A stretch of DNA of 47,530 bases from Thermoplasmatales archaeon SW_10_69_26 (GCA_003009755.1 PXUB01000034.1:1-47530); one strand, 5' to 3'; shown: positions 4,735-47,530, counted from the first letter of the stretch. The notes: generated by a model not told the origin, from the letters alone. Numbers and translations are program-made.

Positions 4735-4796
4735 GCGTGGGCCTCCAACAGCGGCGACGACCTTCGCCCTTCTAAGCACTTCGGCGCATCAGTGGG

Positions 4797-24335: not shown

Positions 24336-24466
24336 CGGACCCACCGAGGCCGCGGGAGGTTAAGGGGTTTGTGGGGAACCCGTTCACCGGGCCAACTCCC
24401 CGACTGGTCGTGGGGGTCGGGGACACGCAAGCGTTTATCCGCCGCCTGGGCGCTGTCGACCCGAGG

Positions 24467-29935: not shown

Positions 29936-30194
29936 GATCGGATCGACTCTCCTGCCGTTGGGGGCCAAGCCCCCGTGAACCCCCCAATAGGGCCGGCGCC
30001 ACGGCGAACCATGGGTCCACGCATCAATGTTGGGGATCGACAGGCAAGGTTGCACGGGTCGCCGATCCGATCAGCGAGCGACGCTGACACCGTATGCCAA
30101 CCCAAGCGATCGGCGATGCCAGACAGCTGGTCGGGGCGGACCCGGGGTCGGTCGCGCGTGCGAGACCCGTCGGCCGCCCGCGGGCAAGCGCCCG

Positions 30195-31301
30195 TCACCG
30201 CCGCCGGCGGATCGCCACCCACAGCCCGGTCGCCAGCGCGATCGAGGCGAGGCCCAGCGGCCCGGGCGAGGCGTTGGCGGTCTGCGACTCGGCGTGGAAC
30301 GTCCACCGGGCGATCCCGGTGCCGCCGGCCGTGTTCGGCACCTCGATGCTGACCGAGTACTTGCGCGGATCGAGCGTGCCCTCGGGTCGATAGGTGATCG
30401 TCCCGTCCCCCACCTCGAAATTCGAGCGATCGACGCGCTCCTTGTCGAAGAACAGGCGCACGTCCTCCTCGACGATCGGCCAGCCCCGCTCGTCGTAGGA
30501 GGCCTCGATCAGGACGCTGTTGGCGGGCACCGTCCCGTTCGGCGCCGGCGTCACGGCTTCGACGAGCGGCTCGGGCGGCTCGGTGCTCTCCGCGGTCGTG
30601 ACCGTGATCGTCTCGCTCGTCGCGTTGTTGCCCGACCAGTCGGCGGCGTCGACGACCACCTCGTAGGTCGTGTTCGCATCCAGGCCCTGCACCGGGAACT
30701 GCTGCCAGGGGCCCGGACGGGCGGGGTAGGTCTGGATGATCTCGCCCTCCGTCGAGCGGACGAACAGCTCGGTGCGAGCGATCTCGCTCGTGTTCGTCGT
30801 CACGTCGAAGCCGATGTCGGTGCGGTTGCCGACGCTGACGATCTCGATCGTCGGCGAGGTCAGGTCGCGGGTGAGCGTGAGCTCGGCCTCGCGGCTCCCG
30901 TCCTCGCCGGTCCCGTTCAGGCCGAGGTCGTAGCGCCACCCGTCGTCGGTCTCGTTCAAGCTGAACACGTCGGCCGCGCGATCGACGTCGGTGACGCTGG
31001 GGGTCTGGATGAAGTGGTCACCGTCGACCAGGGGCACCAGCTGGCGGCCCTCCTCGATCGGGAAGCCGCGATCGATCTCCACGTGGGCGACGTGGTATTC
31101 CTCGGTCAGGTTCAGGGCCCAGGCGTACCGATCGGGCGCGTCCTGGTCCTCGCCGGTCACCAACCCGTCGGGGTCGGTGACCGACGTGTTGCCATCCTCG
31201 GCGATCGCGATCGTCACGTCCCCCTCGCTCGCCGCCGCCGTCCCCAGCCCCGCCAGGCCGAACACGACGACGGCGAGCACGACTCCCCATGCTCCTCGCA
31301 T
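30195..31301 (-). CDS. Fibronectin type III/Ig domain surface protein with C-terminal anchor
   Basis: Signal peptide, FN3 motif GLDANTTYEVVVDAADWSGN and tail SPGPLG-TM-RRRR. Confidence 0.82.
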   Translation of the reverse strand: MRGAWGVVLAVVVFGLAGLGTAAASEGDVTIAIAEDGNTSVTDPDGLVTGEDQDAPDRYAWALNLTEEYHVAHVEIDRGFPIEEGRQLVPLVDGDHFIQTPSVTDVDRAADVFSLNETDDGWRYDLGLNGTGEDGSREAELTLTRDLTSPTIEIVSVGNRTDIGFDVTTNTSEIARTELFVRSTEGEIIQTYPARPGPWQQFPVQGLDANTTYEVVVDAADWSGNNATSETITVTTAESTEPPEPLVEAVTPAPNGTVPANSVLIEASYDERGWPIVEEDVRLFFDKERVDRSNFEVGDGTITYRPEGTLDPRKYSVSIEVPNTAGGTGIARWTFHAESQTANASPGPLGLASIALATGLWVAIRRRR

Positions 31302-31428
31302 GCAGGGCCGAGCCGTGTCCGCCTCGAAAACCCTTCCCCGGCGCAGCCTCGCCTGGGGCCTGACCGCTGTCTGTAGTCCCGCGGTGGACAGGGCTATAAG
31401 CTGGCGGGCCACTCGGGGAGCCCGAGCG

Positions 31429-32547
31429 ATGCCGTTCCACCTCGACGACGAGCAGCAGATGATCCGACGGGTCGTCTCCGACCTCGTCGACAAGACCGTC
31501 CGCCCCCACGCCGAGGAGGTCGACCGCGAGCGCCGTCCCCCCGAGGAAGCCCTCGAAGGCCTGCGCGAGGTCGACCTCATGGGGATGCTTGCCTCCGCCG
31601 ATTACGGCGGCGGCGCCGACACGGTCACCTTCTGCGTCGCCGTCAAGGAGCTGGCCAAGGGCTGTGCCTCCACGGCCGCCCTCATGGGCCTGACGAACGC
31701 GCTCGCCACGCTGCCCGTCGACCTGCTCGGCACCGACGAGCAGAAGGAAACGTGGCTGGCCGAGCTGACCAGCGGCGCCAAGCTCGGCTCGTTCGCGTTG
31801 ACCGAACCCAACGCCGGCGCCGACGTCAGCTCGCTCGACACCAAGATCGTCGAGGACGGCGACGCCTGGACGCTGCGCGGCCAGAAGGCCTGGGTGCTCG
31901 GCGGACCGCTCGCCGACGTCCACCTCGTCGTCGCCCGCGGCCCCGAGGGCCCGACGACCGTGCTCGTCCCCGCCGACAGCGAGGGCGTCGAGACCGGGCC
32001 GCCCGAACGCCTGCTCGGCCTCCGCGGCGCCCAGACGAGCCCGCTGTACCTCGAAGAGGTCCCCGTCGGCGAGGACGAGGTGCTCGGCGACGCCGGCGAG
32101 GCGCTCCAGCAGCTCGCCGAACCGCTGCGCGTGTCCCGGTTGGCGATCGCCGCCTGCGCGACCGGCCTGCTCGAGGCCTCGCTGGCCGCCTCGCAGGACT
32201 ACGCCGACCAGCGCGAGCAGTTCGACGAACCGATCCGCAACTTCCAGGCGATCCAGAACCGCCTGGCCGGCGTGAAGACGGCCGCCTCGACCGCTCGCTC
32301 GCTCACGCTCAAGGCCGCCGACCGCCGCGACGAGGGCCAACCGTTCTCCTCGCAAGCCAGCGAGGCCAAGTGGCGAGCCACCGAGGACGCCCGCGAGCAC
32401 ACCCGCTCGGCGATCCGCCTGCACGGCGGCACCGGCTACATGCGCGAGGCCCACGTCGAGCGCTTCTACCGCGACGCGCGCACGCTCACGATCGTCGGTG
32501 GACCCAACCAGCTGCACCGCCAGCGCATCGTCGACCGGATGTACTGA
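31429..32547 (+). CDS. Acyl-CoA dehydrogenase family protein
   Basis: GTDEQKETWL, FALTEPNAGAD, LRGQKAWV, REQFDEPIRNFQAIQ and HGGTGYMRE..VERFYRDAR. Confidence 0.93.
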   Translation: MPFHLDDEQQMIRRVVSDLVDKTVRPHAEEVDRERRPPEEALEGLREVDLMGMLASADYGGGADTVTFCVAVKELAKGCASTAALMGLTNALATLPVDLLGTDEQKETWLAELTSGAKLGSFALTEPNAGADVSSLDTKIVEDGDAWTLRGQKAWVLGGPLADVHLVVARGPEGPTTVLVPADSEGVETGPPERLLGLRGAQTSPLYLEEVPVGEDEVLGDAGEALQQLAEPLRVSRLAIAACATGLLEASLAASQDYADQREQFDEPIRNFQAIQNRLAGVKTAASTARSLTLKAADRRDEGQPFSSQASEAKWRATEDAREHTRSAIRLHGGTGYMREAHVERFYRDARTLTIVGGPNQLHRQRIVDRMY

Positions 32548-32835
32548 CGGCCGGGACCCGGCTGTCTGGTTAAGCAGGGGCCGCGAAGGACACGAAGGAT
32601 CGCCAAGGCCACGAAGGGCCTGTGTACTCGCCGCCGGGCGGCGTTGTCACGGCAGCTGCTCGCCTTTGTGCCCTGGCGTCCCCTCGCGCACTTGGTGGTC
32701 CCCCCGTTTCTTATCGTTACAGCGCGGGCCGGGACCCGAGGAACGTTTATGCACACCTTGGGCCATCGACCCTAGGAGGCGCGAGGCTCGTCGCGGACGG
32801 CGAGGCTCGTCCACCCGTGCCTGGGAGGGCCCCAC

Positions 32836-35800
32836 GTGAGCCATCGATCTGCTTCGACCCCGAGCCTGTTCGGACCAGCTGCCAAGCTCTCCGAAACGAC
32901 CCTCGTCCCGCTGTTCCTGGCGATCGCCATGGTCGCCGGACCGTTGACCAGCGTGGCCCCCCTCGCGTCCGCCTCGACGGCTGACGCGGGCGGCGTGGAC
33001 GACGCGATCGACTGGGTCGACGCTTGGCTCGACGACCACGACGACGACGCCAACCTCGTCGACGACCGAGCCGAAGCCGAGGCCCAAACGCTGATCGACG
33101 AGGACCGGGGCGGGGCTCCCGTCGGTGTGCTCGTCACCTACGACCACTGGCCCGACGACCACGATCTCGACCGGCTCGTCGCCGAGCACGGCGCCAGCCA
33201 GACGTACGCCTTCGAGATCGTCCCGACCGTCCAAGCTCAGGTCCCCGCCTCCCAGGTCTCCCAGCTCGGACAGGTCCCGGGCGTCGTCGCGGTCGAGTAC
33301 GACTACCCGATCGAGCCCGTCCTCGACGTCAGCTCCCCCGCCTCGCAGGCGCAGGAGCCCGCCAGCACGGGCAGCGCGTACGCCGGCAAGACGGCCCAAG
33401 CCCTCGGCTACGATGGCTCCGACACCGTGGTCGCCGTCCTCGACTCGGGCGTCCAGGACCAGCACAGCGCCTTCGCCGACACGCGCTTCGTCACCGGCGC
33501 CGACGTCTCCTCGCCCGGCTCGACCGGCGACGGGACCGGCGATCCCGGCGACTGCACGAACCCGCCCGACGACAACGGCCACGGGACGCACGTCGCCAGC
33601 ACCGTGCTCGGCGAGACCGCCGAGTCCGACGGGACCCGCCTGCCGGGCACCGCGCCCGGCGCCGGTCTCGTGGACGTCCGCATCGCCGCCAGCGGCGCCT
33701 CGATCGGCGGCGCCCTGCGCGGGTTCGAGTTCGTCGAGCGGTGGAACGACGCGCTGCGCGAGGGCGACCCGCTGTGCCCGCTCGCCAACGCCGACGACCG
33801 GATCGACGTCGCCACGCTGAGCTTCGGCTCGCTGAGCCCCGCCGAGGGCGACGCCGGCAGCACCGGCGAGGCGATCGAGCGCCTCAACGAGCAGGGCGTG
33901 GCCGTCACCGTCGCCGCCGGCAACTGCGGCCCGCAGGGATCGGCCGGCTGCACGACGACCGACAGCGAGGAGACCGTCACCAGCCCCGCCAACGCCGAGG
34001 GCGCGATCACGGTCGCCAACTCCAACGACCGCGAGACGATCGATCGCGGCGACGACCAGGTCAGCGCCAGCAGCTCGCGCGGTCCGATCGCCGGCAGCGC
34101 CTCCGACGCCAGCGACCTCGAGGACCGGTTCCGCAAGCCCGAGATCGCCGCGCCCGGCACCCAGATCACGGCCGCCGGCCTCTCCCCCGGCACCGTCTCC
34201 ACGCTCAGCGGGACCAGCATGGCGACCCCGCACGTCGCCGGCATCGCAGCCACGCTCGTCGAAGCCGGGCGCGACGTCGCCGACCAGACCGGCGGCGAGA
34301 ACCTGATGCTCCCCGACGGCACCGCCTACAACGACGACAGCTACGACGCCGGCGCCAACCCGGTCGTGGATGCCATCATCCACGCCGCCGAGTACAAGAC
34401 CGACGGCGTCCCCCAGGACATGCGGGACAAGTGGGAGGGCCCCGGCGCCGACGACCTCCGCTGGAACAACGGCTACGGCTACGGGCACGTCGACGCCTTC
34501 AGCGCACTCTGCTGGGCCTGGCAGAACGTCCTCCAGCCCGGCGGCGCCGCTCCGACCGACACCGTCGAGTCCGCCTGCGGCCTCGACGACCCGCTCACGG
34601 TCGACCTCGGCGGACCCTACACCGTCGAAACCGAGCGTCTCGTCACCCTCACTGCCGACGCGACCGGCGGCCAGTCCCCCTACGAGTACGCCTGGGACAC
34701 CGACGACGACGGCGCCTTCGACGACCGCACCGGCGACGCCATCCAGGTCTCCTACCCGACGACCGGCGCCTTCACGGTGAGCGTCAAGGTCTTCGACGAC
34801 GCCGGCGCCTCCAGCCAGGACGCGACGACCGTCGTCGTCAGCGAGGACGCCGACGACGGCTCGGGCCTGATCGAGATCACCGAACCGGACCGCGACGAGA
34901 CGGTCGACCCCCAGCTCGTCGTCGAGGGGATCGCCGGCTCCGAGGGCAACAGCCCGCCCTCCGCGAGCTGGACCCACACCAGCGACGGACTCACCGTCAG
35001 CTTCGACGCCACCGGGTCCACCGACCCCGACGGCGACCCCCTCACCTACGAGTGGACCTTCGGCGACGATGCCACCGCGCGCGGCGCCACCCCCGACCAC
35101 ACCTACGCGACCGGCGGCGACTTCACGGTCTGCCTGACCGTCTCCGACGGCTCGCTCACCGACGAGAGCTGCCGACAGATCAGCCTCACACGCCAGGACC
35201 CCCTCTCGCTCGTCACCGACCCCAAGGGTGACGCCGCCGGGCCCGTCACCGGCTCCAACGTCGACGAGCTCGACATCACCGAGGTCTCCGCCATCCAGAA
35301 CGAGGATGGATCGTTCACGATGGTGCTCTCGGTCAACGACCTCCAGCAGGCCACCGTCCCCGCCACGGAAGGCGGCAACGGGGCCATCTGGCGGGTGACG
35401 TGGGACTTCCCCGGCACCGACGGCCACTTCGTCTCCTTCGAGACCGGCCTCGTCAACACGACGGACCCCGGCAGCGTCTACACCGACTGCAGCTACGGCG
35501 AGTGGGACGGCAACATCGCCCAGTCCCAGGGCACGGCCCCGTGCACCGTCGACTACGGTGCCCCCGCCGAGATCCACCTGACGTACCCGGCCAACGCGAT
35601 GGCCGAGAACGGGTACGCCGGCGACGAGCTCCTCTCCGGCGTCCAGGGCCTCAGCTACACCTACCAGGGCAGCCCCCCCGACGCCTCGGTCAGCGCCGGC
35701 CTGACGACCCAGGTCGACGACACCGCCTCCGGCACGTACGAGCTGACCGGGACGAACGCCGAGCTCGCCGAGATCGGGCTCGGCTCCCGCGCCGACGCCC

Positions 35801-38800
35801 GCCAGGCCCCCGAGGAACCGCCCGAGGACCCCGAGATCGTGGACGAGGGCGGTGACGTCAACGGCGACACCGTGCCCGCCAGCCAGATGGACATCCAAGC
35901 CGGCTGGTTCGACGCGGACGCCTCCCACCTCTACGTCGGCCTCGAGCTCGACGACATCCCCCAGAACACGAACACGACGGCCTTCACGAGCTACCGCGTC
36001 GGGTTCCAGCCGGACTACCAGGTCGAGGATCCGACCTGGGGCGGCACCGTGCCCGAGGACGCCACGCTGACCGAGCTGCGGACCTTCGCCGCCTTCAGCC
36101 CGCTCGCCTTCGACAACCTCACCGAACCCACCACTCGGCAGTCCCCCTCGTTCGAGCTCCAGCTCACCTACGAGCAGAACGGCCGGTCCTTCTTCGCCAC
36201 CGTCGGCGACATCGAGGAGGCCAGCATCGATCCCGAGACCGACATCGTCTGGTGGGCCGTCGACCGCGACCTGCTGCAGTCCCCGCCGCCCGACAGCCGC
36301 ATCGTCGAGACGACCGCCACGAGCGCGCCCGCCATCGATGGCCTGCTCACGTTCCAGGGCGCCACGGCCGACACCGCTGGCCCCGGTGATCCGTTCTCGT
36401 TCCCCAAGAGCGCCGACCAGATCCCGCCGACGGTCACCCTCGACGCCTCCCCCGTCAGCGGCTCGGCCCCCCTCGACGTGACCTTCCAGCCCGACACCGA
36501 CGCCGACGATGTCGCCTCCTGGACGATCCGCTACGGCGACGGCGCCTCCGAGTCCGGCACCGGCGGTCTCCCCGCCGAGCTCGGCCACGTCTACGACGCC
36601 GCGGGCGAGCACACCGCCACGCTCGAGGTCACCGACAGCAACGGCCAGACCGGCACCGCGAAGGCGACGGTCAACGTCACCCCGCCCGAGGGCCGCTCCG
36701 TCCGCGTGACGGCCGGCGACCTCGACCCCGTGTGGGCCAACTGCGAGGACGCCTGCAGCACCTGGACGGCGGCCCTCGACCTCGACGCGCTCGAGCCCGG
36801 CACCACCAGCCTCACCGCGACCCTCGTCGAGGACGGCGAGGTGCTCGGCCGCGACACCGTCGCCGTCGAGGTGACCCCCGACGACGGGCTCACGGTCCTC
36901 GCCCCCGAGGAGGACCAGCGCCTGCCGCCCGGCGACGTCCGCGTGCAGGGCGAGATCGACGACACCGATCGACCGCCGCGCGCGATGCTCGACGCCGAGC
37001 CCCAGCGCGGCTCCTCCCCGCTCGACGTCACCTTCGACCTCGACGGCGCCGACGACGAGGGCGTCGTCTCCTGGCGGCTGCTCACCGACGACGGCACCGT
37101 CATCGACGGGACCCAGCTCCCGATCGAGGCCGAGCACACCTACGACGAGCCCGGCAACTACACGGCCACCCTGCAGGTCACCGACACGGCCGGCCAGCGC
37201 GACACGAGGGCCGTCCCGATCGAGGTCGACGACGAGAACGAGGCCCCCGAGGCCCCGAACTCGCCCACGCCCGCGGACGGCTCCGGGGACGTCCCCCGAC
37301 CCCCGACGCTGAGCTGGGAGGCCAGCGACCCCGACGGTGACGAGCTCGTGTACGACGTCTACCTCGACACCTCCGCCCAGCCGGACACCCTCGTCCGCAC
37401 GGGCCTGGAGGACCCCTCGTTCGTCGCCACGGACCTCGAGCCCTCGACCACCTACCACTGGCAGGTCGTCGCCGACGACGGCCTCACCACGACCGAGGGC
37501 CCGGTCTGGAGCTTCACGACGGCGGCAGCCTCCGGGCTCGCCAACTCCCCGCAGACCGTCATCGCCTACATCGACAGCGGCGGGTTCCCCTACCACGAGC
37601 AGTTCCAACGCGCCGAGCACGACCAGCACCCCAGCGAGTACATCGAGGGCTACCCCGCCGACGCCCAGGCGCTGGACCTGTGCTTCTTCGACCAGGCGTC
37701 CGGCACGGTCGACCGCAGCAACTGCCCCGACTCCCCGACCGCGGCCGCCGAACAGGACGTCGACGAGTGGCGCAAGCTCGGCGTCACCGGCACCGGGCAG
37801 ACCGGGCCCGGCGAGGGCGATCTCGCCTACGTGCCCGGCACGAACGTGGTCGGCGCGATCAGCTTCGCCCACGACGGCGACGCCGACTACCCCACCCTCG
37901 ACGGTGACAAGGGCGACGGCGACGCCCACGGTACGTGGGTGGCCGGCTCGATCGCCGGCCAGACGACCGGCTCCTGCCCCGACTGCCTGATCGTCACGAT
38001 CGAAGCCGACAGCGTCTCGGCCATCGAATCCGGCTGGCAGTGGGCCGCCCAGCAACCCTGGATCGACGGCATCACGTCCAGCGTGTACGCCGGCATCTGC
38101 ACCCCGGTGGGGGTCTGCCAGAGCATCGACGGCTTCGCGACCTCGATCGCCAGCTCCACGCAGACGGCCGCCGAGAACGGCAAGCTCGTCTTCGAGGCCG
38201 CCGGCAACGGCGTCGGCGGCGCCGGCCTCGCCACCTCGACCACGGCGCCCGACTCGAACTTCGCGCCCTGGTCGATCTCCGTCGGCTGCTCCTCCGAGAG
38301 CGGCCACTCCTGCCTCTACAGCGACGAGCCCGCCCCGATCACCGCCACCGGCACACCTCGCCAGACCGCCGACCCGGGCACCTACGACGGCACCAACGAC
38401 CCGGTCGGGACGAGCTTCTCCTCGCCCAGCGCCGCCGGTGTCGCCGGCCAAGCGCTGGTGTCCCTGCGCGCCGAGCTCGGCGCGACGACCGAGGGCCCGG
38501 CCGCCGACGCGAACAACTCCCTCGTCGAACCCGCCAGCGACGCCACCCTCCCCGAGGACACGGCGCTCACCAACGGCGAGCTGACGAAGAAGGAGCTCGA
38601 GGAGGCCCTGTTCAAGACCGCCCGACGCGGCGTGCTGCCCTCGACGCCCGCCTGGATCGTACCCGTGGAGACCCCCGACTCGCCCGCCGGCTTCCTCAAG
38701 GGCGGCTACGGCGACGTCTACCGCGGCGCCTGGGGCGTCAACCACGAGTCCGCCTCCAGCTCGGACTCGACCGCCGGCGCCGTCTCCGCCACGCTCCTCG

Positions 38801-41800
38801 GCGAGACCGAGATGCCGAACCGGTACCTCGAGGAGACGTACTGGGAGGACGCCGTCGAACCGATGCAACGCCAGGTCCACGGCGAGGAGCCCGAGGAGCC
38901 CGACGACGACGCCTGGCCCACCGACGACGAGGCCAGCCCCGATGGCCTCGACGGCCACCAGGGCGGATCGTCCACCACCACGACCAGCTCCTCGGGGGAC
39001 CTCGCCCAGCCCGCGTCCACGCGGCCGCAGGGCGACCAGCCGACGCCCGACAACAGCCGGCTGTACCTGCACCACGACCAGACCGACGCCGAGAGCGTGA
39101 GCGACGGCGCCGACCTCTACATGAACACGATCCCCGACCCCGGAGACGGCTGCAGCGGCCCCGGCTGCCCCGACACCACGCCCTGGGGCGCCACCGGCGC
39201 CGGCACCAGCGGCGAACAGCAGACATACGAGATGGATCACCCCGAGCTGGCTGACACGCTGCTCCTCGACGAGGACGGCCAGATCACCGTCCACGTCGAA
39301 GCCACCGGCATCTTCGACAACCCGCCCACGCCGACCGAGGTCGACGTCACGCTCCAGGATGGCGACGGGCTCGTCGCCACCGGCCAAGCCGACCGCGAGA
39401 TCCCCGGCTCCGCCGACCACGCCACCTACGAGGCCACCCTCGACCCGGTGGCCTACACCATCGAGGACACGCTGACGCTATCGATCACGTGGGATGACCG
39501 GCAGTACAGCTTCCACGTCCAGAGCCACGGGGCCTCGTGGGTCGATCTCCCGCTCACGGGGAGCGCGGACGAGCTCGACTACGAGCAGGACAGCTTCTAC
39601 CTCGACGACCTCGACGCGAACATGGGCAACGGCGAGACGGTGCCGCTGACCCGCGACGAGGCCGACCTGCAGGGCGATCCCGACACCGGGACCACCTACC
39701 TGCGCGCCTACCGCAACGGGTTCACGTTCAACCTCGACAGCGGCCAAGACGACGCCGCAGCCGGCGAGAACGTGCTGCTCGGCAACGACGGCTCCGCCAC
39801 CCTGTGGGTCTGCACGGCGCCGGTCCTCTCCTACGGCGCGACCGAGTTCACCGTCGAGGTCGCACTCCAAGCCGGGGACACGCCGCTGGGCGGGGGCTCG
39901 GTCACCCAGACCTACGCCGGTGCGCACGACGGCTCCTCGCAGGCGATCACCGTTCCCTTGGACCTGCACGAGACGCTCGTGCCCGAGGACGAGCCGCTGA
40001 CCGGCTCGATCACCGTCGAGGGCGCCACGGGCTTCTACACCTCGAACATCGCCTTCTGCGGCGGCAGCGCTGACAAACCGTGGAGCCTCGACCTCCTCTC
40101 CGCCGAGCTGGGCACCCAGCTGCCCAGCACGGACCTCACCGAGGCCCCCGACGGCACCCTCGCGGGCGAGACCCCCCTCGAGGGCACCTACGAGGCCCCC
40201 GAGGACCCCGGCCTCCAGCAGACCACCTGGTACGCGACGAACTTCGACCAGTGGTCCGAGGGCGACGCCGAAGCCCAGAGCCCCGAGCTGCGGCTCGGCA
40301 CCGAGGGGCCCGGGCCCGGCAGCGGCGGACCGATCCTGCCGCCCGAGGAGGACGGCTACACGATCGAGCTCACCAGCGAGCAGCCGCTGCTCGACGAAGC
40401 CGACGAGATCCTCGACGAGGGCGCCGGCAGCGCCCAGTTCTGGGTCACCGCCGCCGGCGGCGCGACCGACGTCCGCGTGGACCTGACCGCCATGCTCGAG
40501 GGCTCCAACGGCGACCGTCGCGTGCTCGGGGAGGGCTCCGTCACCAAGCACGTCGTCCCGCCGTTCGGGACCGTGCGGACCCTCACCCACGAGCCCTTCC
40601 GCGTCGACTTCGAGCCCGCCGTCACCGACGTCGCGGACGACGAACGTCTCGTCCTCCGCGCGCAGGTCACCAACGTCGGTCCGGCCACGACCACGCAGGT
40701 CACCTGCGTGTGCGGCGGCGAGGAGCGCCCGATCACCGTCAGCCTGCCGACCGACGACGCCGTGACGCCGAGGGATCCCCAGGTCCGCGTGACCGTGGAC
40801 GAAGCCATCGACCGCCGCGTCCCGGCCGACAGCTCCCCATGGAGCACCACGATCGACACGACCGAGCTCCCGGACGGCGAGCACACCATCACCGCCACGC
40901 CCGAAGCGACCTACGGCGACGAGACCCGCCAAGGCACGCCCCAGGAGGCCACCTTCACCTCCGACAACGACCTCTCGAACGAGGCGCCAAGCGCCTCGCT
41001 CGCGGTCGACCCGCTCAGCGGGACCGCGCCGCTCGCCGTGACGGCCAACGCCGACGCCACCGACGACGACACGCCCCGCGATCAGCTCTCCTGGACGCTC
41101 ACCTGGGGCGACGGCTCCGCCCAGGAGTCCGGCACCGGCCTCCCGGCCGAACTCACCCACGAGTACGCCGACCCCGGCGAGTTCACGGTGACGCTCGAGG
41201 TCACCGACGACGAGGGCGAGACCGGCACCGCGACCGCGAGGGCCCAGGTCTTCGCCCCCGCCGAGGAGAAGGTGATCGTCACCCTCGGCAACGAGACGAT
41301 CGAAGCCCAGGCCGACGCCGACGACGGCTCGCTGGCCGCGTGGCACGCCGACATCCCCAGTGTCGACCGTGGCCTGCACGAGGTCACCGTCGAACACGTC
41401 GAAGAGAACGCGCAAGAGACGACCGTGTTCGCTCGCGAGCAGCTGCTTCTCCGCGTCGAACCCTCCGGCGTCCCCGAGACCGCCATCGAGGGCCCCGGCG
41501 AGGACACCCGCGTCCACGAGACGACCCCCATCGAGGGCCGCATCACCGGGTACACCGGCGAGGAGGAGCCGACGCGAACGAGCACGTCCCTGACGACCGA
41601 CAGCTCGCAGGCCGCCGTGGCGCCGATCGTCCAGGACGTCGTCGACGCGGGCGAGCCCGCGCCCAGCGTGCCCGAGCCCGTCACGACCGACGCGCTCGAG
41701 CCCGCGCTCGAGCACCTCGTCGACGTGGCCGGCGGCGACCCCGAGCGCGTCAGCGACGAGCTCGACCAGGCCACGATCCCCGAGGAGGCCGAGACGCCGC

Positions 41801-44800
41801 TCGCCAGCCTCGCCGAGGCCGTCGCGCAAGCCACGGAGATGCGCCGCGAGGCGATCGATCTCTCGACGACCGAGCTCGAGACCGTCGAGCTCACGCCGAC
41901 GCTGCTGGAAGCCGTCGACGTCGACCACGCCCAGCTCGTCGAGGCCCAGCTGCTCGTCGCCACCACCGTCGACGAGCACCGCGAGAGCCTGGAGCAGGTG
42001 CCCGCGGAGGCCGACGAGGACGACGCCCCCGCCTTCGAGATCGAGGGCATCGTCGCCTTCGACAACGAGGGCGACACGACCTACGAGCCCGGGCACTACT
42101 TCCTGAAGGTCGACACCGCCGGCCAGGACACGCACCGCGACACCGCCGGCGGCGCCTACGGTCTCACTCTGGACCGCGACGTCTCCGTCTCGATCGACAC
42201 CGACGGCGCCGACACCTACGACGGCGACTGGTCCGCGCCTGCCAGCTCCTCCTTCGAGACGTTCCAGGGAGCGGCCACGAACGTCGGGCTCGGCCTGCTC
42301 GCCGACACCGTCGGCGACGACAGCTACACCGTCACCGGCGACGTCGCCGAGGCGACCAGCGACAACGTCCAGCGCGCCGCCCAAGGCGCCGGCCAGGTCG
42401 CCTCGGTCGGCGTGCTCGCCGATCTCGCTGGCGAGGACACCTACGAGGCCACGCTCACCGGCATCGACGACAACGCTGCATCCACGATGCTGGCCTCCGC
42501 GCAAGGCGCCGTGCACGACACCGGCCGGATCAACCCCGGCTACACGCTGCTGTTCGACCGTGAAGGCGACGACGCCTACGAGGCCACCTTCGACGGCGAC
42601 GCCGCCTACCAGGGCGACGTGAACCCTGTCACGGTGCCGTCGGTCGCCGCGCTCGTCGACGGCGACGGCTCCGACGACTACAGCCGCCCCGTCAACGGCG
42701 ACTACCTCGCGCGCACGACCGCGCCCGACACCGCCGCCGGCGCCGCCCACTTCCTCGACACCGCGCCCGAGGACCCCTCCGTCCACGTCCGCGAGCCAGC
42801 CGCGGGCGACACGGTCCGCCAGACCGCCGACGTCACGGTCGAAGCCCGCGACCTCGACGATATGCTGGGCACCTCCGGCGCCCGCTTCGTGACGCAGGTC
42901 GAGGCCGAGATCGGCGACAAGGGCTTCGTCGACCTCACCCAGCAGGGCGACACCGACCGCTGGACCGGCACGCTCGACCTCGCCGGCGAGGACGGCGCCA
43001 CCGAGCTCACCGCGCGCGCCACGAACGTCGACGGGAGCACGGCGACGGACACGATCACCGTCGACGTCAACAACGACCTACCGCCGACGCTCGCCGTCGA
43101 CGAGACGATCACGCGCGCCAGCCCGACCGAGGATCCCGCCGTCAGCCTCGACCTCTCCGGCACCGAGGACCCCGAGGGCTCCACGCTGGCCTACACGATC
43201 GCCTGGGGAGACGGCAGCGAGACCACGCGCACCAGCCCGCACGACGTCAGCGACGTCTCGCACACCTACGACACCGGCGAGTACACGATCGCGGTCACCG
43301 TCGAGGACGAGGCCGGCAACGCCGACGAGGCCACGCTCGACGTCGACCTCTCGCCGCCCGCGTTCGCCAGCGTCACCCAGGAGGACGTCCAGGTCGCGAG
43401 CGCCAACTACACCGTCGACCTCGACGACGAGGGCACCCTCGACGCGAGCCTCGACGGCGCGGGCACCGTCGACGTCACCGAGCAACCCAGCGCCTTCGAG
43501 GTCAACGCCACCGAGCTCGACGCCGCGACGACCTACACGCTGACGCTCACCAGCGCCGACGACCTCGGCAACGAGGCCCAGACCACCGAGACGTTCACCA
43601 CCTCCGAGCCCGACAACGAGCCGCCGACGGTCGCCCTGGACCTCGACGCCACCACGGTCCCGACCGGCGGCACGGTCGAGGCCACCGTGACGGCCGAGGA
43701 CCCCGAGGACGGCGCCCTCTCCGAGGCGACGGTCACCTGGGACGATGGCACGCAAGAGACCGTCGCGCTGACGAACGGCGAGGGCCAGGCTCGGCACACC
43801 TACGACGAGCGCTGCGAGTGCACCGTGCACGCCCAAGCCACCGACAGCGACGGCGCCAGCGCCTCCGACAGCGTCGACCTCGTCGTCGACCACGCTCCCC
43901 AGGTCACGCTCACCGTGCCCGCCAGCCCCGCGCCCGAGACCGACGAGCACACGATCGAGCTCGACGTCACCGACGCCGACGACGATCCGATCCGAGCCGA
44001 TCTGCGGCTCGAGGGCGAACCCGTCACCCTGCGCGAGGCCGACCCCGCGGACAACACGACGGACGACGGCAAGCTGTTCACCGCCACCGTCGACCCCGAC
44101 GCCGGCACCGTCACCGCGAGCGCCGACGTCCACGACGGTCTCCGCACGACGACCGAGGAGACCAGCTACACGGTGAACGCCGCGCCGAACGTGACCGGCA
44201 CCCTGTCCCCCTGGAGCGGCACGCAGGACACCACGTTCACCTACGATGCCGCGACGAGCGACGCCGACGGCGACCCCGTGAGCCTCACCCTCCTCGTCGA
44301 CCACCGGGAGATCGAGCTCGGCCCCGACCGCACCGCGCAGCTCGACCTCGACGACGGCCAGCACCGCTTCGCCCTCCTCGCCACGGACGGCTTCGACGAG
44401 GTCCGCTGGCCCGGCCCCGGCGCCTGGGCCTTCGGCCCCGTCGTCGGCAACCTCTCGCAGGTCGAGATCTCCGCCGACGGCACGTTCGCGGATCCGACCG
44501 TGGCCCAGACCGACGGCGACCTCGACGACTGGACCCGCCAGCTCGGGGACGTCGGCCTCGCCGAGGACCAGGCCCACGAGGTCCACGTCCGCGGCGTGGA
44601 CGCTGACCACGGCCCCGGGCCCGCCGCCACCGTGAACCTGACGATGGACCAGCTCCCGACGCCCAGCATCGAGGTCCTCACCGCCACGCCCGTCCGCACG
44701 GGCACCAGCCTCGACCTGCAAGGCTCGGCCGAGCCCAGCACCCACGGCGACGACGTGCCCCCGGAGAACCTCGCCTGGAGCTTCGGCGACGGCGCCACCG

Positions 44801-47530
44801 CCACCGGCCCCGACGTCGACCACGCCTTCGCCGACGACGGCACCTACGACGTCACCCTGACCGCCACCGACACCGAGGGCCGCGACGGCGAGACGACGAC
44901 GCAGATCCAGGTGCTCAACCGCGCGCCCACGGTCTCGCTCGCCACCGACCCGAGCCCGGCCTACCAGAGGGATCCGACCACGATCGAGCTCGCGAGCGAG
45001 GACCCCGACGGCACCGTGGCCAGCGAGGCGATCCGCGTCTACAACGGCACGTCCACCGAGGACGAGCTGCTCGCCTCCGGCACGAGCCCGGTCGACGTCA
45101 CCTTCCCCGACGACGGCGCGTTCCTGATCGTCGGCGAGGCCACCGACGACGACGGTGACACGGCCACCACCGAGGTCACCCTGCACGTGCGCAACCGCGC
45201 CCCGCAGGCCGACCTGGCCGTCGAGCCGAGCCGGCAGTTCACCGGCGCGAACGCGACCCTCGACGCCTCGGCCACGACCGACCCCGACGGCGAACCCGTC
45301 GCGTACACCTTCGAGACCGGCGACGGCAACCGCACCCGGACGACGTCCCCGACCCTCGCGCACGCCTACACGCAGACCGACCGCTACCAGGCCGACCTCG
45401 CGGTCGAGGACGACGACGGCGCCACCGCCACGGCCGACACCGTCACCGTCGACGTCCACGCCTACCCGACCGTGCCCGACCAACACGTCGCCAAGGGCCG
45501 CAACCTGAGCTTCGCCGTCGAGACCGTCACGCCCGGCGAGGCCACGCCCGCCGCCCTCTCGATGCACGCCCCCGGGCTCCCCGAGGACGCGTCCTTCGAG
45601 GAGCACGGCGACGGCACCGGGACCTTCTCCTGGCAGACCACCGTCGACGACGCGGGCACCTACGAGGCCAACTTCACCGCCGACCTCGGCGAGACCGAGC
45701 AGACGCAGACCGTCGCGATCCAGGTCACCGCCGAGGAGCCTGCGGCCGTCAACGAACGCACCCGCCACGGGTACGACACGATCCAGGCCGCCATCGACGA
45801 CGCCCGAGCCGGCGACACGGTCCTCGTCGGCTCCGGCACCCACGCGGAGGAGGTCACCGTCGACCGACCCGGCCTGACCCTGTGCCCGGCCGACGCGGAC
45901 GACACCGGGTGCGCCGCGGACGCCACGCGGCCGACGCTGGCCTCCGACACCGGGCTCGGCGTGGCCGTCACCGCCGACGGCGTCCACGTCGAAGGCCTGG
46001 CCATCCGGCCCAGCGGCGCCGCGAGGGAGACCGTCGGCCTCGCCGCCGGCACCGACGCCGGCCCCGTCGACGGGCTCGTCCTCGAGAGCAACCGCATCCA
46101 ACCCGGCAGCGAGCTGCTCACCGACCTCGGCGGCACCGGCCTGGACATCGAGGCCACGAACGCCACGATCACCGCCAACGAGTTGCGCTCGTGGACCCAG
46201 GGCCTGAGCCTCGCCGCCGACGAGACACGGGTCACGGACAACACGGTCGAGGCCTCGACGCTGGGCTTGACCGTCACCGACGGCGACGCGATCACGCTCG
46301 CCGGCGACCGCGTCCACGCGGCCGACACCGCCTACCGCATCGAGGCCGCCAGCGACGTGCTCGTCGCGGACGCGCTCGTGACCGCGACGGCCACCGGTGT
46401 CGAGCTCGCCGCTGGCGAGGCCGGTGTGCAGCCGACCGACGTCACGGTGAACAACACGCGGCTGGAGACCACCACGGTCCCGCTGGCGTTGACCTGCAAC
46501 GACTGGGGTGCCTACCACCGCGGCGCGATCGAGGAGCGCATCCAGGACGCCGGTCAAAAGAACACCGTCGAGTTCCAGCCCTGGCAGGGCCCCAACCCGG
46601 ACGTCACGCTCGACAACGGCTGCCTCGTCGAGCCCGTGAGCGCGTTCGAGCACACGCCCGAGGGCCCGACCCGGCAAGACGAGGTCCGGTTCAACGAGAC
46701 CGCCCGCCCCGGCTCGGCGCCGATCCTCACCTACGAGTGGGACTTCGGCGACGGCACCACGAGCCGCATGGCCAACCCCACCCACTCCTACGACGAGCTG
46801 GGTAGCTTCGAGGTCGAGCTCACCGTGGAGGACGCCAACGGCATGCGGTCCACCACGACGCAGACCGTCGACGTGCGGAACCTCGCCCCCGGGCTGGACG
46901 CCCCGATCGCCGTCGAGAGCGCCCACGAGCAGGACCTGTCGGTCGACGTGAGCGCCAGCAGCGAGGAGGGTGACGCGGTCGAGCTGTCCGCCAGCGGCAC
47001 CCCGCTCGCCGAGGGGGCTACGTTCACCGTGGAGGATCAGGGGACCGCGGCCCCGGTCGCTACGTTCAACTGGACGGACATCGACGCGAGGGACCGCGGC
47101 ACCTACGTGCTCGAGGTCACCGCCAGCGACGAGCACGGCGCCGAGACCACCGACCAGGTCGAGGTCACGGTCACCGACGAGGCGCCCACCCTCGACCCGG
47201 TCGAGGATCCGACGACGCGGTTGGGTCACGAGGTCACGTTCACGGCGAACGCCACGGACGAGAACGGCGATCCGGTCGAGCTGACCGCCAGCGGCGTGCC
47301 CTCCAACGCGACGTTCACGGTCGAGAACCAGACCACCGCCGAGCCGACGGCCACGTTCGTCTGGACCCCGACCGGGGACAGCCAGGTCGGCGAGCACAAC
47401 ATCACGCTCGCCGCCGAGGCCGAGGGGCTGGCGGACACGCAGATGGTGACGGTCACCGTGGGTGAGGAGAACCAGCCGCCGGCGATCGCGATCGAGCGCG
47501 GGGGCTCGCCCGTGGGTGATACGGTGACGG
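32836..47530 (+). CDS. Giant secreted multidomain protein (at least 4,898 aa, runs off the window): two S8 protease domains, PKD/Ig/FN3 repeats, GxDxY repeats, parallel beta-helix
   Basis: Frame opens after TAG 32773-32775; GTG at 32836 has GGGAGG upstream. No stop found by reading, and no ORF-track entry terminates in this frame. S8 no.1: D33442 (VLDSG), H33580 (HGTHVAS), S34216 (GTSMATPHVAG). S8 no.2: D37573 (YIDSG), H37927 (HGTWVAG), S38413 (GTSFSSP). Confidence 0.93.
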   Translation, partial: MSHRSASTPSLFGPAAKLSETTLVPLFLAIAMVAGPLTSVAPLASASTADAGGVDDAIDWVDAWLDDHDDDANLVDDRAEAEAQTLIDEDRGGAPVGVLVTYDHWPDDHDLDRLVAEHGASQTYAFEIVPTVQAQVPASQVSQLGQVPGVVAVEYDYPIEPVLDVSSPASQAQEPASTGSAYAGKTAQALGYDGSDTVVAVLDSGVQDQHSAFADTRFVTGADVSSPGSTGDGTGDPGDCTNPPDDNGHGTHVASTVLGETAESDGTRLPGTAPGAGLVDVRIAASGASIGGALRGFEFVERWNDALREGDPLCPLANADDRIDVATLSFGSLSPAEGDAGSTGEAIERLNEQGVAVTVAAGNCGPQGSAGCTTTDSEETVTSPANAEGAITVANSNDRETIDRGDDQVSASSSRGPIAGSASDASDLEDRFRKPEIAAPGTQITAAGLSPGTVSTLSGTSMATPHVAGIAATLVEAGRDVADQTGGENLMLPDGTAYNDDSYDAGANPVVDAIIHAAEYKTDGVPQDMRDKWEGPGADDLRWNNGYGYGHVDAFSALCWAWQNVLQPGGAAPTDTVESACGLDDPLTVDLGGPYTVETERLVTLTADATGGQSPYEYAWDTDDDGAFDDRTGDAIQVSYPTTGAFTVSVKVFDDAGASSQDATTVVVSEDADDGSGLIEITEPDRDETVDPQLVVEGIAGSEGNSPPSASWTHTSDGLTVSFDATGSTDPDGDPLTYEWTFGDDATARGATPDHTYATGGDFTVCLTVSDGSLTDESCRQISLTRQDPLSLVTDPKGDAAGPVTGSNVDELDITEVSAIQNEDGSFTMVLSVNDLQQATVPATEGGNGAIWRVTWDFPGTDGHFVSFETGLVNTTDPGSVYTDCSYGEWDGNIAQSQGTAPCTVDYGAPAEIHLTYPANAMAENGYAGDELLSGVQGLSYTYQGSPPDASVSAGLTTQVDDTASGTYELTGTNAELAEIGLGSRADARQAPEEPPEDPEIVDEGGDVNGDTVPASQMDIQAGWFDADASHLYVGLELDDIPQNTNTTAFTSYRVGFQPDYQVEDPTWGGTVPEDATLTELRTFAAFSPLAFDNLTEPTTRQSPSFELQLTYEQNGRSFFATVGDIEEASIDPETDIVWWAVDRDLLQSPPPDSRIVETTATSAPAIDGLLTFQGATADTAGPGDPFSFPKSADQIPPTVTLDASPVSGSAPLDVTFQPDTDADDVASWTIRYGDGASESGTGGLPAELGHVYDAAGEHTATLEVTDSNGQTGTAKATVNVTPPEGRSVRVTAGDLDPVWANCEDACSTWTAALDLDALEPGTTSLTATLVEDGEVLGRDTVAVEVTPDDGLTVLAPEEDQRLPPGDVRVQGEIDDTDRPPRAMLDAEPQRGSSPLDVTFDLDGADDEGVVSWRLLTDDGTVIDGTQLPIEAEHTYDEPGNYTATLQVTDTAGQRDTRAVPIEVDDENEAPEAPNSPTPADGSGDVPRPPTLSWEASDPDGDELVYDVYLDTSAQPDTLVRTGLEDPSFVATDLEPSTTYHWQVVADDGLTTTEGPVWSFTTAAASGLANSPQTVIAYIDSGGFPYHEQFQRAEHDQHPSEYIEGYPADAQALDLCFFDQASGTVDRSNCPDSPTAAAEQDVDEWRKLGVTGTGQTGPGEGDLAYVPGTNVVGAISFAHDGDADYPTLDGDKGDGDAHGTWVAGSIAGQTTGSCPDCLIVTIEADSVSAIESGWQWAAQQPWIDGITSSVYAGICTPVGVCQSIDGFATSIASSTQTAAENGKLVFEAAGNGVGGAGLATSTTAPDSNFAPWSISVGCSSESGHSCLYSDEPAPITATGTPRQTADPGTYDGTNDPVGTSFSSPSAAGVAGQALVSLRAELGATTEGPAADANNSLVEPASDATLPEDTALTNGELTKKELEEALFKTARRGVLPSTPAWIVPVETPDSPAGFLKGGYGDVYRGAWGVNHESASSSDSTAGAVSATLLGETEMPNRYLEETYWEDAVEPMQRQVHGEEPEEPDDDAWPTDDEASPDGLDGHQGGSSTTTTSSSGDLAQPASTRPQGDQPTPDNSRLYLHHDQTDAESVSDGADLYMNTIPDPGDGCSGPGCPDTTPWGATGAGTSGEQQTYEMDHPELADTLLLDEDGQITVHVEATGIFDNPPTPTEVDVTLQDGDGLVATGQADREIPGSADHATYEATLDPVAYTIEDTLTLSITWDDRQYSFHVQSHGASWVDLPLTGSADELDYEQDSFYLDDLDANMGNGETVPLTRDEADLQGDPDTGTTYLRAYRNGFTFNLDSGQDDAAAGENVLLGNDGSATLWVCTAPVLSYGATEFTVEVALQAGDTPLGGGSVTQTYAGAHDGSSQAITVPLDLHETLVPEDEPLTGSITVEGATGFYTSNIAFCGGSADKPWSLDLLSAELGTQLPSTDLTEAPDGTLAGETPLEGTYEAPEDPGLQQTTWYATNFDQWSEGDAEAQSPELRLGTEGPGPGSGGPILPPEEDGYTIELTSEQPLLDEADEILDEGAGSAQFWVTAAGGATDVRVDLTAMLEGSNGDRRVLGEGSVTKHVVPPFGTVRTLTHEPFRVDFEPAVTDVADDERLVLRAQVTNVGPATTTQVTCVCGGEERPITVSLPTDDAVTPRDPQVRVTVDEAIDRRVPADSSPWSTTIDTTELPDGEHTITATPEATYGDETRQGTPQEATFTSDNDLSNEAPSASLAVDPLSGTAPLAVTANADATDDDTPRDQLSWTLTWGDGSAQESGTGLPAELTHEYADPGEFTVTLEVTDDEGETGTATARAQVFAPAEEKVIVTLGNETIEAQADADDGSLAAWHADIPSVDRGLHEVTVEHVEENAQETTVFAREQLLLRVEPSGVPETAIEGPGEDTRVHETTPIEGRITGYTGEEEPTRTSTSLTTDSSQAAVAPIVQDVVDAGEPAPSVPEPVTTDALEPALEHLVDVAGGDPERVSDELDQATIPEEAETPLASLAEAVAQATEMRREAIDLSTTELETVELTPTLLEAVDVDHAQLVEAQLLVATTVDEHRESLEQVPAEADEDDAPAFEIEGIVAFDNEGDTTYEPGHYFLKVDTAGQDTHRDTAGGAYGLTLDRDVSVSIDTDGADTYDGDWSAPASSSFETFQGAATNVGLGLLADTVGDDSYTVTGDVAEATSDNVQRAAQGAGQVASVGVLADLAGEDTYEATLTGIDDNAASTMLASAQGAVHDTGRINPGYTLLFDREGDDAYEATFDGDAAYQGDVNPVTVPSVAALVDGDGSDDYSRPVNGDYLARTTAPDTAAGAAHFLDTAPEDPSVHVREPAAGDTVRQTADVTVEARDLDDMLGTSGARFVTQVEAEIGDKGFVDLTQQGDTDRWTGTLDLAGEDGATELTARATNVDGSTATDTITVDVNNDLPPTLAVDETITRASPTEDPAVSLDLSGTEDPEGSTLAYTIAWGDGSETTRTSPHDVSDVSHTYDTGEYTIAVTVEDEAGNADEATLDVDLSPPAFASVTQEDVQVASANYTVDLDDEGTLDASLDGAGTVDVTEQPSAFEVNATELDAATTYTLTLTSADDLGNEAQTTETFTTSEPDNEPPTVALDLDATTVPTGGTVEATVTAEDPEDGALSEATVTWDDGTQETVALTNGEGQARHTYDERCECTVHAQATDSDGASASDSVDLVVDHAPQVTLTVPASPAPETDEHTIELDVTDADDDPIRADLRLEGEPVTLREADPADNTTDDGKLFTATVDPDAGTVTASADVHDGLRTTTEETSYTVNAAPNVTGTLSPWSGTQDTTFTYDAATSDADGDPVSLTLLVDHREIELGPDRTAQLDLDDGQHRFALLATDGFDEVRWPGPGAWAFGPVVGNLSQVEISADGTFADPTVAQTDGDLDDWTRQLGDVGLAEDQAHEVHVRGVDADHGPGPAATVNLTMDQLPTPSIEVLTATPVRTGTSLDLQGSAEPSTHGDDVPPENLAWSFGDGATATGPDVDHAFADDGTYDVTLTATDTEGRDGETTTQIQVLNRAPTVSLATDPSPAYQRDPTTIELASEDPDGTVASEAIRVYNGTSTEDELLASGTSPVDVTFPDDGAFLIVGEATDDDGDTATTEVTLHVRNRAPQADLAVEPSRQFTGANATLDASATTDPDGEPVAYTFETGDGNRTRTTSPTLAHAYTQTDRYQADLAVEDDDGATATADTVTVDVHAYPTVPDQHVAKGRNLSFAVETVTPGEATPAALSMHAPGLPEDASFEEHGDGTGTFSWQTTVDDAGTYEANFTADLGETEQTQTVAIQVTAEEPAAVNERTRHGYDTIQAAIDDARAGDTVLVGSGTHAEEVTVDRPGLTLCPADADDTGCAADATRPTLASDTGLGVAVTADGVHVEGLAIRPSGAARETVGLAAGTDAGPVDGLVLESNRIQPGSELLTDLGGTGLDIEATNATITANELRSWTQGLSLAADETRVTDNTVEASTLGLTVTDGDAITLAGDRVHAADTAYRIEAASDVLVADALVTATATGVELAAGEAGVQPTDVTVNNTRLETTTVPLALTCNDWGAYHRGAIEERIQDAGQKNTVEFQPWQGPNPDVTLDNGCLVEPVSAFEHTPEGPTRQDEVRFNETARPGSAPILTYEWDFGDGTTSRMANPTHSYDELGSFEVELTVEDANGMRSTTTQTVDVRNLAPGLDAPIAVESAHEQDLSVDVSASSEEGDAVELSASGTPLAEGATFTVEDQGTAAPVATFNWTDIDARDRGTYVLEVTASDEHGAETTDQVEVTVTDEAPTLDPVEDPTTRLGHEVTFTANATDENGDPVELTASGVPSNATFTVENQTTAEPTATFVWTPTGDSQVGEHNITLAAEAEGLADTQMVTVTVGEENQPPAIAIERGGSPVGDTVT

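Follow-up and report, generated by a model that had tools for sequence, protein, structure and literature searches.

Halolysins are substrates of the twin-arginine translocation (Tat) pathway of 400–550 amino acids (aa), with one peptidase family S8 (subtilase) domain and a short C-terminal extension. Two subtilase domains in one polypeptide have been described for CspBA of Clostridioides difficile, the halves of which are separated by YabG (PMC7200643). The SPEARE proteins of Nanohaloarchaeota, which reach up to 8,553 aa, are reported to be mostly extracytoplasmic and to combine an N-terminal serine protease with many adhesion domains; a C-terminal membrane helix, a conserved cytoplasmic type III restriction-enzyme part behind it and laminin-G are given as their hallmarks (PMC6642349). 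A UniProt survey of proteins of at least 5,000 aa lists 'relatively few' archaeal ones, mostly laminin-G proteins, and its main text does not mention peptidases or subtilisin (PMC11573180). Here we describe a gene of at least 4,898 codons in a 47,530-nucleotide (nt) stretch of DNA from Thermoplasmatales archaeon SW_10_69_26 (GCA_003009755.1, PXUB01000034.1:1-47530; hereafter the window). The predicted product, referred to as the giant protein, carries two S8 domains, S8 no.1 and S8 no.2, and is best read as belonging to a family of very large archaeal surface enzymes, with its N-terminal head exchanged.

A giant open reading frame

When open ends are allowed, a listing of open reading frames (ORFs) gives a single open frame on the + strand at 32836..47529, which begins with GTG, comprises 4,898 codons and runs off the 3' end. 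The frame +1 translation contains no stop codon from 32836 to the end of the window, the remaining five frames of the same stretch contain 2 to 160 stops each, and the longest open run in 200 mononucleotide shuffles of the stretch is 776 codons. The G+C content of third codon positions (GC3) is 0.89–0.985 in every 600-nt segment, always at least 0.33 above that of second positions, and reaches 0.96 for the complete stop-to-stop frame; overall G+C is 72% in the giant gene and 70% in the window. Since stops are absent and GC3 is uniformly high, frame +1 is the coding frame of the giant gene. A first-pass annotation of the window had claimed a protein of at least 4,898 aa in this frame, still open at the edge, and this claim stands; no in-frame stop separates the two S8 domains. 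It had also called the protein hidden, being absent from the ORF track, which has no biological meaning: the ORF lister skips open-ended frames by default. Three long frames on the opposite strand (32647..39420 (-), 2,257 aa; 39478-42786 (-), 1,102 aa; 43078-47397 (-), 1,439 aa) were considered as genes and rejected; because GC3 marks the + frame as coding, they are taken to be shadows of a G+C-rich gene with 96% third-position G+C.

The GTG at 32836, the first start codon past an in-frame stop at 32773-32775, is a plausible start. A Shine-Dalgarno-like GGGAGGG (32823..32838, +) is located 6 nt ahead of it and a TATA-like box, TTTAT, about 90 nt upstream (~32747, +), both read directly from the DNA. 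Internal DNA repeats of the gene are short, the longest family measuring 125 nt at 75% identity next to three tandem arrays of about two short units each. P0006, a 998-aa fragment encoded on another contig of 18.5 kb, is 99% identical to aa 922–1919, a region that includes the junction between the fn3-like module and S8 no.2. The giant gene is intact and uninterrupted up to the contig end. Its product contains 18.5% Asp plus Glu (D+E) and 0.5% Lys, and its 32 Cys residues fall into 16 neighbouring pairs, which agrees with the many paired Cys remarked on earlier.

The N-terminus (aa 1–47; 32836..32976, +) resembles a signal peptide, with a hydrophobic core at aa 21–46 ending in ...PLASA and no twin-arginine motif. 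The core is the sole segment of the whole chain with a Kyte-Doolittle 19-residue mean above 1.6, no internal hydrophobic segment being present in aa 47–4898, and the giant protein is predicted to be exported and not to span the membrane over its known part.

Two unrelated subtilase domains

Domains were mapped with Pfam on the whole protein and on 32 overlapping 300-aa segments (E<=0.01), and with NCBIfam. Both S8 domains that had been proposed, each with a full triad (D203/H249/S461 and D1580/H1698/S1860), were recovered. S8 no.1 (aa 194–550; 33415..34485, +) scores 143.9 bits with PF00082 (Peptidase_S8; cut-off 21.8) and matches 112 PDB sequences at E<=1e-3, the best of which are Tk-SP (3afg, E=4.6e-18) and Tk-subtilisin (~1e-16) of Thermococcus kodakarensis. 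Its D203 in VLDSG, H249 in HGTH, N363 (oxyanion) in AAGN and S461 in GTSMATP align to the motifs of 3afg. On these alignments S8 no.1 is a classical subtilase, closest to Tk-SP/Tk-subtilisin; identity to the two neighbouring S8 proteases of the window amounts to 27–30%, hence it is no close copy of them. Ahead of the domain is a propeptide-like region (~aa 100–190; 33133..33405, +), where phmmer alignments reach into the Tk pro-region: the alignment to the Tk-subtilisin precursor starts at query residue 119 and chain residue 26, and that to Tk-SP at query residue 145 and chain residue 96. No Pfam match was found in this region at E<=5. Of the signal and propeptide originally suggested, the signal-like segment thus stands and the propeptide is partly supported.

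S8 no.2 (aa 1563–2040; 37522..38955, +) is far more divergent, with 30.6 bits against the same PF00082 cut-off of 21.8 (in segment aa 1651–1950) and one PDB sequence match (E=3.1e-6). When 1.84 billion cluster representatives were searched exhaustively with HMMER, the relatives numbered 395 at E<=1e-3, falling to 228 at E<=1e-10 and to 21 at E<=1e-30. The catalytic residues D1580, H1698, N1791 and S1860 are well preserved among them: Asp, His, Asn and Ser lie in canonical motifs in 20/20 aligned sequences, and in the family alignment His, Asn and Ser are invariant (69/69) and Asp is at least 90% conserved. The AlphaFold2 (AF2) model built from the 69-sequence alignment has a predicted local distance difference test (pLDDT) score of 92.1 and a predicted template-modelling (pTM) score of 0.93, and almost all of the top 50 Foldseek matches listed are subtilisin-fold proteins (probability 1.00). 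The target-normalised TM scores against single-domain subtilases are 0.45–0.69, on account of large insertions and a C-terminal helical extension. The model therefore allows a subtilisin alpha/beta fold to be assigned to S8 no.2 with confidence, and its sequence places it in a small divergent subtilase clade. A recent duplication of S8 no.1 and S8 no.2 was considered and rejected, the similarity of the two being confined to the active-site motifs (E>1); judged by this comparison, they are unrelated to each other. With complete and conserved catalytic residues, both look active.

S8 no.2 directly follows an fn3-like module and has no propeptide of its own, as had been noticed together with its divergence. 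Domains of this type also occur as stand-alone proteins of 400–700 aa. In the stand-alone members P0024, P0026, P0030 and P0033 the S8 match begins at residue 22–42, and in P0024, the N-terminus of which was inspected, right behind the signal peptide. Because so little precedes the S8 domain in these stand-alone relatives, the lack of a propeptide is, on the alignments, a trait of the S8 no.2 clade and not a defect of this copy. Members of the clade seem not to need a propeptide for folding, an uncommon property among subtilases that would make them of interest for enzymology and for salt-stable proteases. Pfam S8 is undetected at E<=1e-4 in 9/20 of the closest relatives, which is why public names read only 'PKD', and current annotation appears largely to miss the clade.

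Collinear relatives with different heads

A whole-length protein search over the range of 2,693–8,572 aa found no full-length counterpart, its four matches all running through PKD/Ig repeats. Several large proteins are nevertheless collinear with long parts of the chain. P0007 (2,545 aa) aligns to aa 640–2706 with 42% identity and has no second block. P0009 (3,643 aa) aligns to aa 640–2854 with 39%, P0010 (3,589 aa) to aa 585–2911 with 40% and P0008 (2,226 aa) to aa 1504–2927 with 40% identity, and each of these three has a second block at about aa 3861–4297 with 34–38% identity. The collinearity with P0009 and P0010 skips about aa 2912–3860 (BLAST), including an acidic linker. P0008, which begins inside the fn3-like region, and P0012 are named 'PKD domain-containing protein [Candidatus Thermoplasmatota archaeon]' and derive from metagenome-assembled genomes.

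In P0007, P0009 and P0010, the first ~450–500 residues do not form an S8 domain. The alignment consensus of the relatives' heads contains Asp-box-like motifs, and these proteins are predicted to carry a BNR-like propeller in the place of S8 no.1. A further arrangement is found in P0018 (1,891 aa), which holds an S8 no.2-type domain and a classical S8 in one chain. It is the only protein with a second S8 among the 48 relatives scanned with Pfam (1/20 of the best-scoring and 0/28 drawn from the others longer than 800 aa, out of 159 family proteins); the count rests on Pfam, a local phmmer search with S8 no.1 having missed the first S8 of P0018. In P0060 (1,496 aa), an S8 no.2-type domain is joined to a caspase (Peptidase_C14) domain, so that the odd subtilase recurs with a second protease in both P0018 and P0060.

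The core of the family consists of PKD, two Glucodextran_C-like repeats, PKD/Ig/fn3, the propeptide-less S8, three sandwich modules and PKD/Ig/He_PIG rods. To this the giant protein adds the acidic linker, a GxDxY block, more PKD rods and a NosD-type beta-helix. The comparison suggests a family with a constant core around an odd subtilase and a variable enzymatic head, which in the giant protein is a classical subtilase.

Remaining modules of the giant protein

Behind S8 no.1, two PKD domains (aa 594–668 and 706–779; 34615..35172, +; Pfam PKD, PKD_4 and K319L-like_PKD) precede two D.xGD...DI repeats (aa 786–1195; 35191..36420, +), recognised by their motif and kept in P0007, P0009 and P0010. 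Searches of aa 786–1195 against Pfam, at thresholds up to E<=5, and against PDB sequences gave no match. The top three Atlas clusters carry PF09985 Glucodextran_C (score 0.94–0.95, 186–192 shared features), and the repeats are possibly Glucodextran_C-like binding modules. The following segment (aa 1196–1562; 36421..37521, +) is composed of PKD, an Ig-like stretch, PKD and the fn3-like module, with PKD_4 matches at aa 1206–1281 and 1380–1459 and an fn3 match at aa 1491–1547 that, at 22.9 bits, lies under the Pfam cut-off of 25.

S8 no.2 is followed by three all-beta, sandwich- or jelly-roll-like modules (aa 2041–2640; 38956..40755, +), which are conserved together with it in the large relatives and share 37–41% identity with P0007–P0010. 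Neither a Pfam match nor an Atlas family was found for aa 2041–2640. Their AF2 model is all-beta and mediocre (pLDDT 66.8, pTM 0.37), and Foldseek returned low-TM matches only (0.06–0.26), to C1q/TNF-like, CBM22, reelin and Cry-domain jelly rolls. The beta-sandwich repeats of the first-pass annotation are accordingly backed for these three modules by the mediocre all-beta model, the D.xGD..DI pair being left without a Pfam match.

The next segment (aa 2641–2919; 40756..41592, +) contains a weak Ig-like Big_7 match and a PKD domain (aa 2715–2804) and leads to a Pro-containing acidic linker rich in Ala, Glu, Val and Leu (aa 2920–3063; 41593..42024, +), delimited by its composition, and to six hhh-D-x-x-G-x-D-x-Y repeats, counted by eye (aa 3064–3312; 42025..42771, +). 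For the linker and this GxDxY block, neither a Pfam match at E<=5 nor a PDB sequence match was found. An Ig/PKD stalk (aa 3313–4298; 42772..45729, +) follows, with Pfam matches to PKD, weak ones to Big_7 and Big_13 and one to He_PIG. A right-handed beta-helix of the NosD/CASH type is predicted at aa 4313–4600 (45772..46635, +). It scores 23.8 bits with Pfam NosD (cut-off 23.6) and 33.4 bits with NCBIfam NosD_copper_fam, far under the cut-off of 300, and a PDB sequence search of the region gave no match. The chain then continues with PKD, Big_9 and He_PIG (aa 4606–4898; 46651..47529, +; Pfam), open to the last codon. Pfam counts 10 PKD stretches in the whole protein, and the PKD/Ig rods, beta-helix and He_PIG-like tail read from the translation were thus found again, fn3 remaining below threshold. 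Nearly all items of the first-pass map are correct. When Pfam was run at E<=5 on nine unassigned segments, 7/9 stayed blank; the matches in the remaining two were to BAT, at chance level, and to NosD.

The open 3' end and a shared tail

P0156, a paralogue-like protein of 1,230 aa whose gene lies outside the window, possesses a signal peptide as well as beta-helix repeats (PF13229 Beta_helix and PF05048, both precomputed). Over its last 573 residues it can be aligned to aa 4313–4898, and when compared in 40-residue blocks the identity is ~30% in the beta-helix and rises to 80–100% over the last ~300 residues. P0156 and the frame in the window end at the identical residue. As a near-identical stretch breaks off at one and the same point in two contigs, the contig break is probably an unresolved repeat common to two genes, and the giant gene very probably continues past the contig end into a tail shared with at least one other gene. 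Gene conversion has perhaps taken place between the tails of the giant gene and P0156. P0207 (1,814 aa), a halophilic relative of the tail, extends ~740 residues past the equivalent of the window end, which suggests a full length well above 5,000 residues. A scan of genome contigs with the last 599 residues matched 604 stretches, of which 499 were confirmed; a near-identical locus is absent among the best 80 of these, the best match having 61% identity and consisting of short PKD pieces.

The exchange of heads (subtilase versus BNR propeller), together with a tail common to two genes, suggests how giant surface proteins may evolve. Genes cut at shared repeats in this manner would be systematically truncated, and thereby hidden, in short-read assemblies.

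Genomic neighbourhood and host

The window is a peptidase-rich neighbourhood. Pfam identifies an M14 carboxypeptidase (3370-4779, -), an S15 X-Pro dipeptidyl-peptidase (22551-24344, -) and two tandem S8+PKD proteases (25900-27711 and 27974-30055, -), which with the giant gene make three subtilase genes. All three S8 proteins have Sec-like and not twin-arginine-like signal peptides. The tandem S8+PKD pair is closely similar and has propeptide-like N-terminal regions, and the product of the 27974-30055 gene also possesses a Reelin-subrepeat-like C-terminal module.

The window further encodes an ABCE1/RLI-type ATPase (14193-15992, Pfam), a gene type not known outside archaea and eukaryotes, as well as aconitase, a presenilin-type signal-peptide peptidase, acyl-CoA dehydrogenase, two pyrroloquinoline quinone (PQQ)-type propellers and, as its sole tRNA, tRNA-Arg (CCT) (9987-10064, -). 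This gene content, the 70% G+C and the extreme acidity point to a free-living 'salt-in' halophilic archaeon as the host. Haloplasmatales is described as a halophilic order of Thermoplasmatota (10.1101/2023.07.03.547478). The Thermoplasmatota relatives and the Sec-like signals would fit this order, and gene transfer into a haloarchaeon would fit as well.

Two other loci in the window deserve mention. A short-chain dehydrogenase gene (18803-19660, +) is split by an in-frame TAG at 19229-19231 (adh_short positions 2-90 and 100-190), which could reflect a pseudogene, a sequencing error or read-through; TAG as a general sense codon was rejected, the giant frame of 4,898 codons having no TAG. In addition, two long, overlapping frames on opposite strands both show good third-position G+C. 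The frame at 30991-32547 (+) encodes the acyl-CoA dehydrogenase, and as its Pfam match begins at residue 153 the true start is probably near 31400; the frame at 30195-31580 (-) has no clear Pfam family.

Proposed role and alternative explanations

We hypothesize, with somewhat more confidence than doubt, that the giant protein is an exported multi-enzyme protease and adhesin, which is held on the cell or shed and cuts proteins for uptake. In this process, the chain would be exported via Sec and would either stay attached through its missing C-terminal part or be shed. The Ig-like/PKD rods would keep both proteases tens of nanometres from the cell, and the sandwich, Glucodextran_C-like and beta-helix modules may bind polymers or foreign cell surfaces. 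The two proteases, which would have different pockets, could then degrade proteins that are to be taken up, together with the neighbouring S8, S15 and M14 peptidases.

Several points weigh against this proposal or the family assignment behind it. The peptidase neighbours are located on the opposite strand from the giant gene and their co-regulation is conjecture; expression, activity and location of the giant protein are presumed. The C-terminus lies beyond the contig, and no anchor or effector is visible. Given the 80–100% identity to P0156, there may be a mis-join in the tail. Two junctions are without outside support, namely that between S8 no.1 and the first PKD (~aa 550–600) and that between He_PIG and the beta-helix (~aa 4298–4313). 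P0006 opens with an internal Met, and the frame in the window runs on past its end; in that other assembly the frame may be broken or the piece cut. The head of P0009 scores 29.6 bits with BNR_2, under the Pfam cut-off of 31.4, and it is from weak matches that a role in binding is drawn for the sandwich, Glucodextran_C-like and beta-helix modules.

An explanation that we regard as unlikely, but for which several observations speak, is that of a polyprotein. Once exported, the chain would be split by one of its two S8 domains, or by the S8 enzymes encoded nearby, to release a classical protease, a free unit of S8 no.2 with the sandwich modules, and adhesive rods. The great size would then serve as a delivery device and not as a working state. 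Self-removal of the propeptide is usual among subtilases, and S8 no.1 is preceded by a propeptide-like stretch; S8 no.2-type domains exist as stand-alone proteins, and the acidic, Pro-containing linker at aa 2920–3063 could be a cleavage region. Precedents have been reported in CspBA, which is cleaved between its two S8 halves (PMC7200643), and in a giant SPEARE protein that was recovered in separate size fractions (PMC6642349). However, no cleavage site can be read in the sequence, the linkers between the modules are short, as in rod-like surface proteins, and the order of the core is kept over more than 2,000 residues in the relatives, which suggests one working piece.

Clearly improbable in our view is a contact-dependent weapon or cell-cell device, similar to SPEARE proteins or polymorphic toxins, with an effector in the missing C-terminus and an S8 domain acting as a releasing or host-surface-cutting peptidase. 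Subtilisin is named among the processing proteases of Sec-exported polymorphic toxins (PMC3482391), and the SPEARE proteins of Nanohaloarchaeota are described as uniting serine protease, adhesion and C-terminal nuclease parts (PMC6642349). The modular ends, with a variable head in the relatives and a tail 80–100% identical to P0156, and the coupling of an S8 no.2-type domain with a caspase domain in P0060 could also be understood in this way. In contrast, the C-termini of P0008 and P0010 look by eye like ordinary beta-sandwich, with no C-terminal family reported. Laminin-G gave no Pfam match in the whole protein or the 32 segments (E<=0.01), and neither did RHS, filamentous-haemagglutinin (FilH) or similar stalk repeats, the stalk consisting of PKD, Big and He_PIG. 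Moreover, polymorphic toxins are stated to be generally absent from archaea save certain methanoarchaea and haloarchaea (PMC3482391), and the metabolic genes of the window (aconitase, acyl-CoA dehydrogenase) are those of a free-living organism, unlike the SPEARE hosts.

With little confidence, we also put forward a broader idea, in which such giant surface proteins would be cassette-like, with swapped enzymatic heads (a classical subtilase here, a BNR propeller or caspase in relatives) on a constant core around the hitherto unrecognised propeptide-less subtilase clade, and with near-identical tails within a genome. The two-protease version would be a long-reach device for attachment to neighbouring cells and digestion of their protein surface layer. 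If true, the two-protease form of this system would correspond, in a free-living organism, to the SPEARE proteins of Nanohaloarchaeota.

It is very improbable that S8 no.2 is a binding module or pseudo-enzyme, like CspA and CspC, leaving S8 no.1 as the only domain that cuts. The strong divergence of S8 no.2 (best PDB match E=3.1e-6), the lack of a Pfam S8 match at E<=1e-4 in 9/20 closest relatives and the absence of a propeptide would be compatible with such a role. Pseudoproteases, however, usually lose catalytic residues, and here these are canonical in 20/20 sequences, with His, Asn and Ser invariant in 69/69, and the confident model is subtilisin-like.

Least credible of all is an assembly artefact, in which paralogues were joined via their PKD/He_PIG repeats, or a dead gene: although the contig ends where P0156 ends, with tails 80–100% identical, so that repeats have troubled the assembly, and although P0006, on its contig of 18.5 kb, spans no more than 998 aa, the reading frame would seldom survive over 4,898 codons in a chimera, the coding signal is uniform, the internal repeats are short and diverged, and the order of ~aa 600–2900 is confirmed by three independent relatives and that of aa 922–1919 by the 99%-identical P0006.

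Comparison with known systems

A described giant archaeal protein with two S8 domains was not found in literature searches, for which most subscription journals were outside reach. The earlier suggestion of an undescribed architecture nevertheless needs qualifying: the core, without S8 no.1, is present in relatives of 2,226–3,643 aa, and P0018 and CspBA have two S8 domains as well. The comparisons indicate that the two-S8 giant design is rare, not unique.

The nearest relatives are the Thermoplasmatota PKD proteins P0007–P0010, with which the giant protein shares a common core of 34–42% identity (~aa 585–2927 and 3861–4297) that includes S8 no.2, the D.xGD pair, the sandwiches and the PKD/He_PIG rods. 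These proteins have a D+E content of 8–11% and are not halophilic, in contrast to 18.5% in the giant protein, and they are without the acidic linker, the GxDxY block, part of the stalk and the beta-helix. S8 no.1 aligns best, partly including the pro-region, with Tk-SP and Tk-subtilisin of T. kodakarensis (3afg, 2z2z) and with pyrolysin-like archaeal subtilases. While the Tk enzymes have 400–540 residues and one catalytic domain, S8 no.1 forms the tip of a protein that has at least 4,898 residues. Halolysins, with which the protein had first been compared, resemble it as secreted subtilases of extreme halophiles with an acidic surface. The comparison goes no further, as the giant protein is without a twin-arginine motif, its architecture is entirely different and the structures nearest to S8 no.1 are the Thermococcus enzymes Tk-SP and Tk-subtilisin.

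CspBA also contains two S8 domains, but it is intracellular or spore-borne and ~1,100 aa long, has a prodomain for each half, and its second half is a pseudoprotease in C. difficile. In the giant protein both triads are intact, the S8 domains are ~1,000 residues apart, export is predicted and there is no second prodomain; S8 no.1 is matched weakly and locally by NCBIfam germ_prot_CspBA (36.8 bits versus a cut-off of 1250). With the SPEARE proteins, compared by description and not by sequence, it has in common a giant size, an origin in halophilic archaea and the combination of protease and adhesion domains. The SPEARE hosts, however, are small-genome symbionts, whereas the window encodes central metabolism. 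To the rare archaeal proteins of ~5,000 residues, the giant protein would add a protease-bearing type in a halophile. Taken together, the giant protein is a member of the S8 family twice over, likely to act in the manner of large cell-surface subtilases on the scale of the giant archaeal surface proteins.

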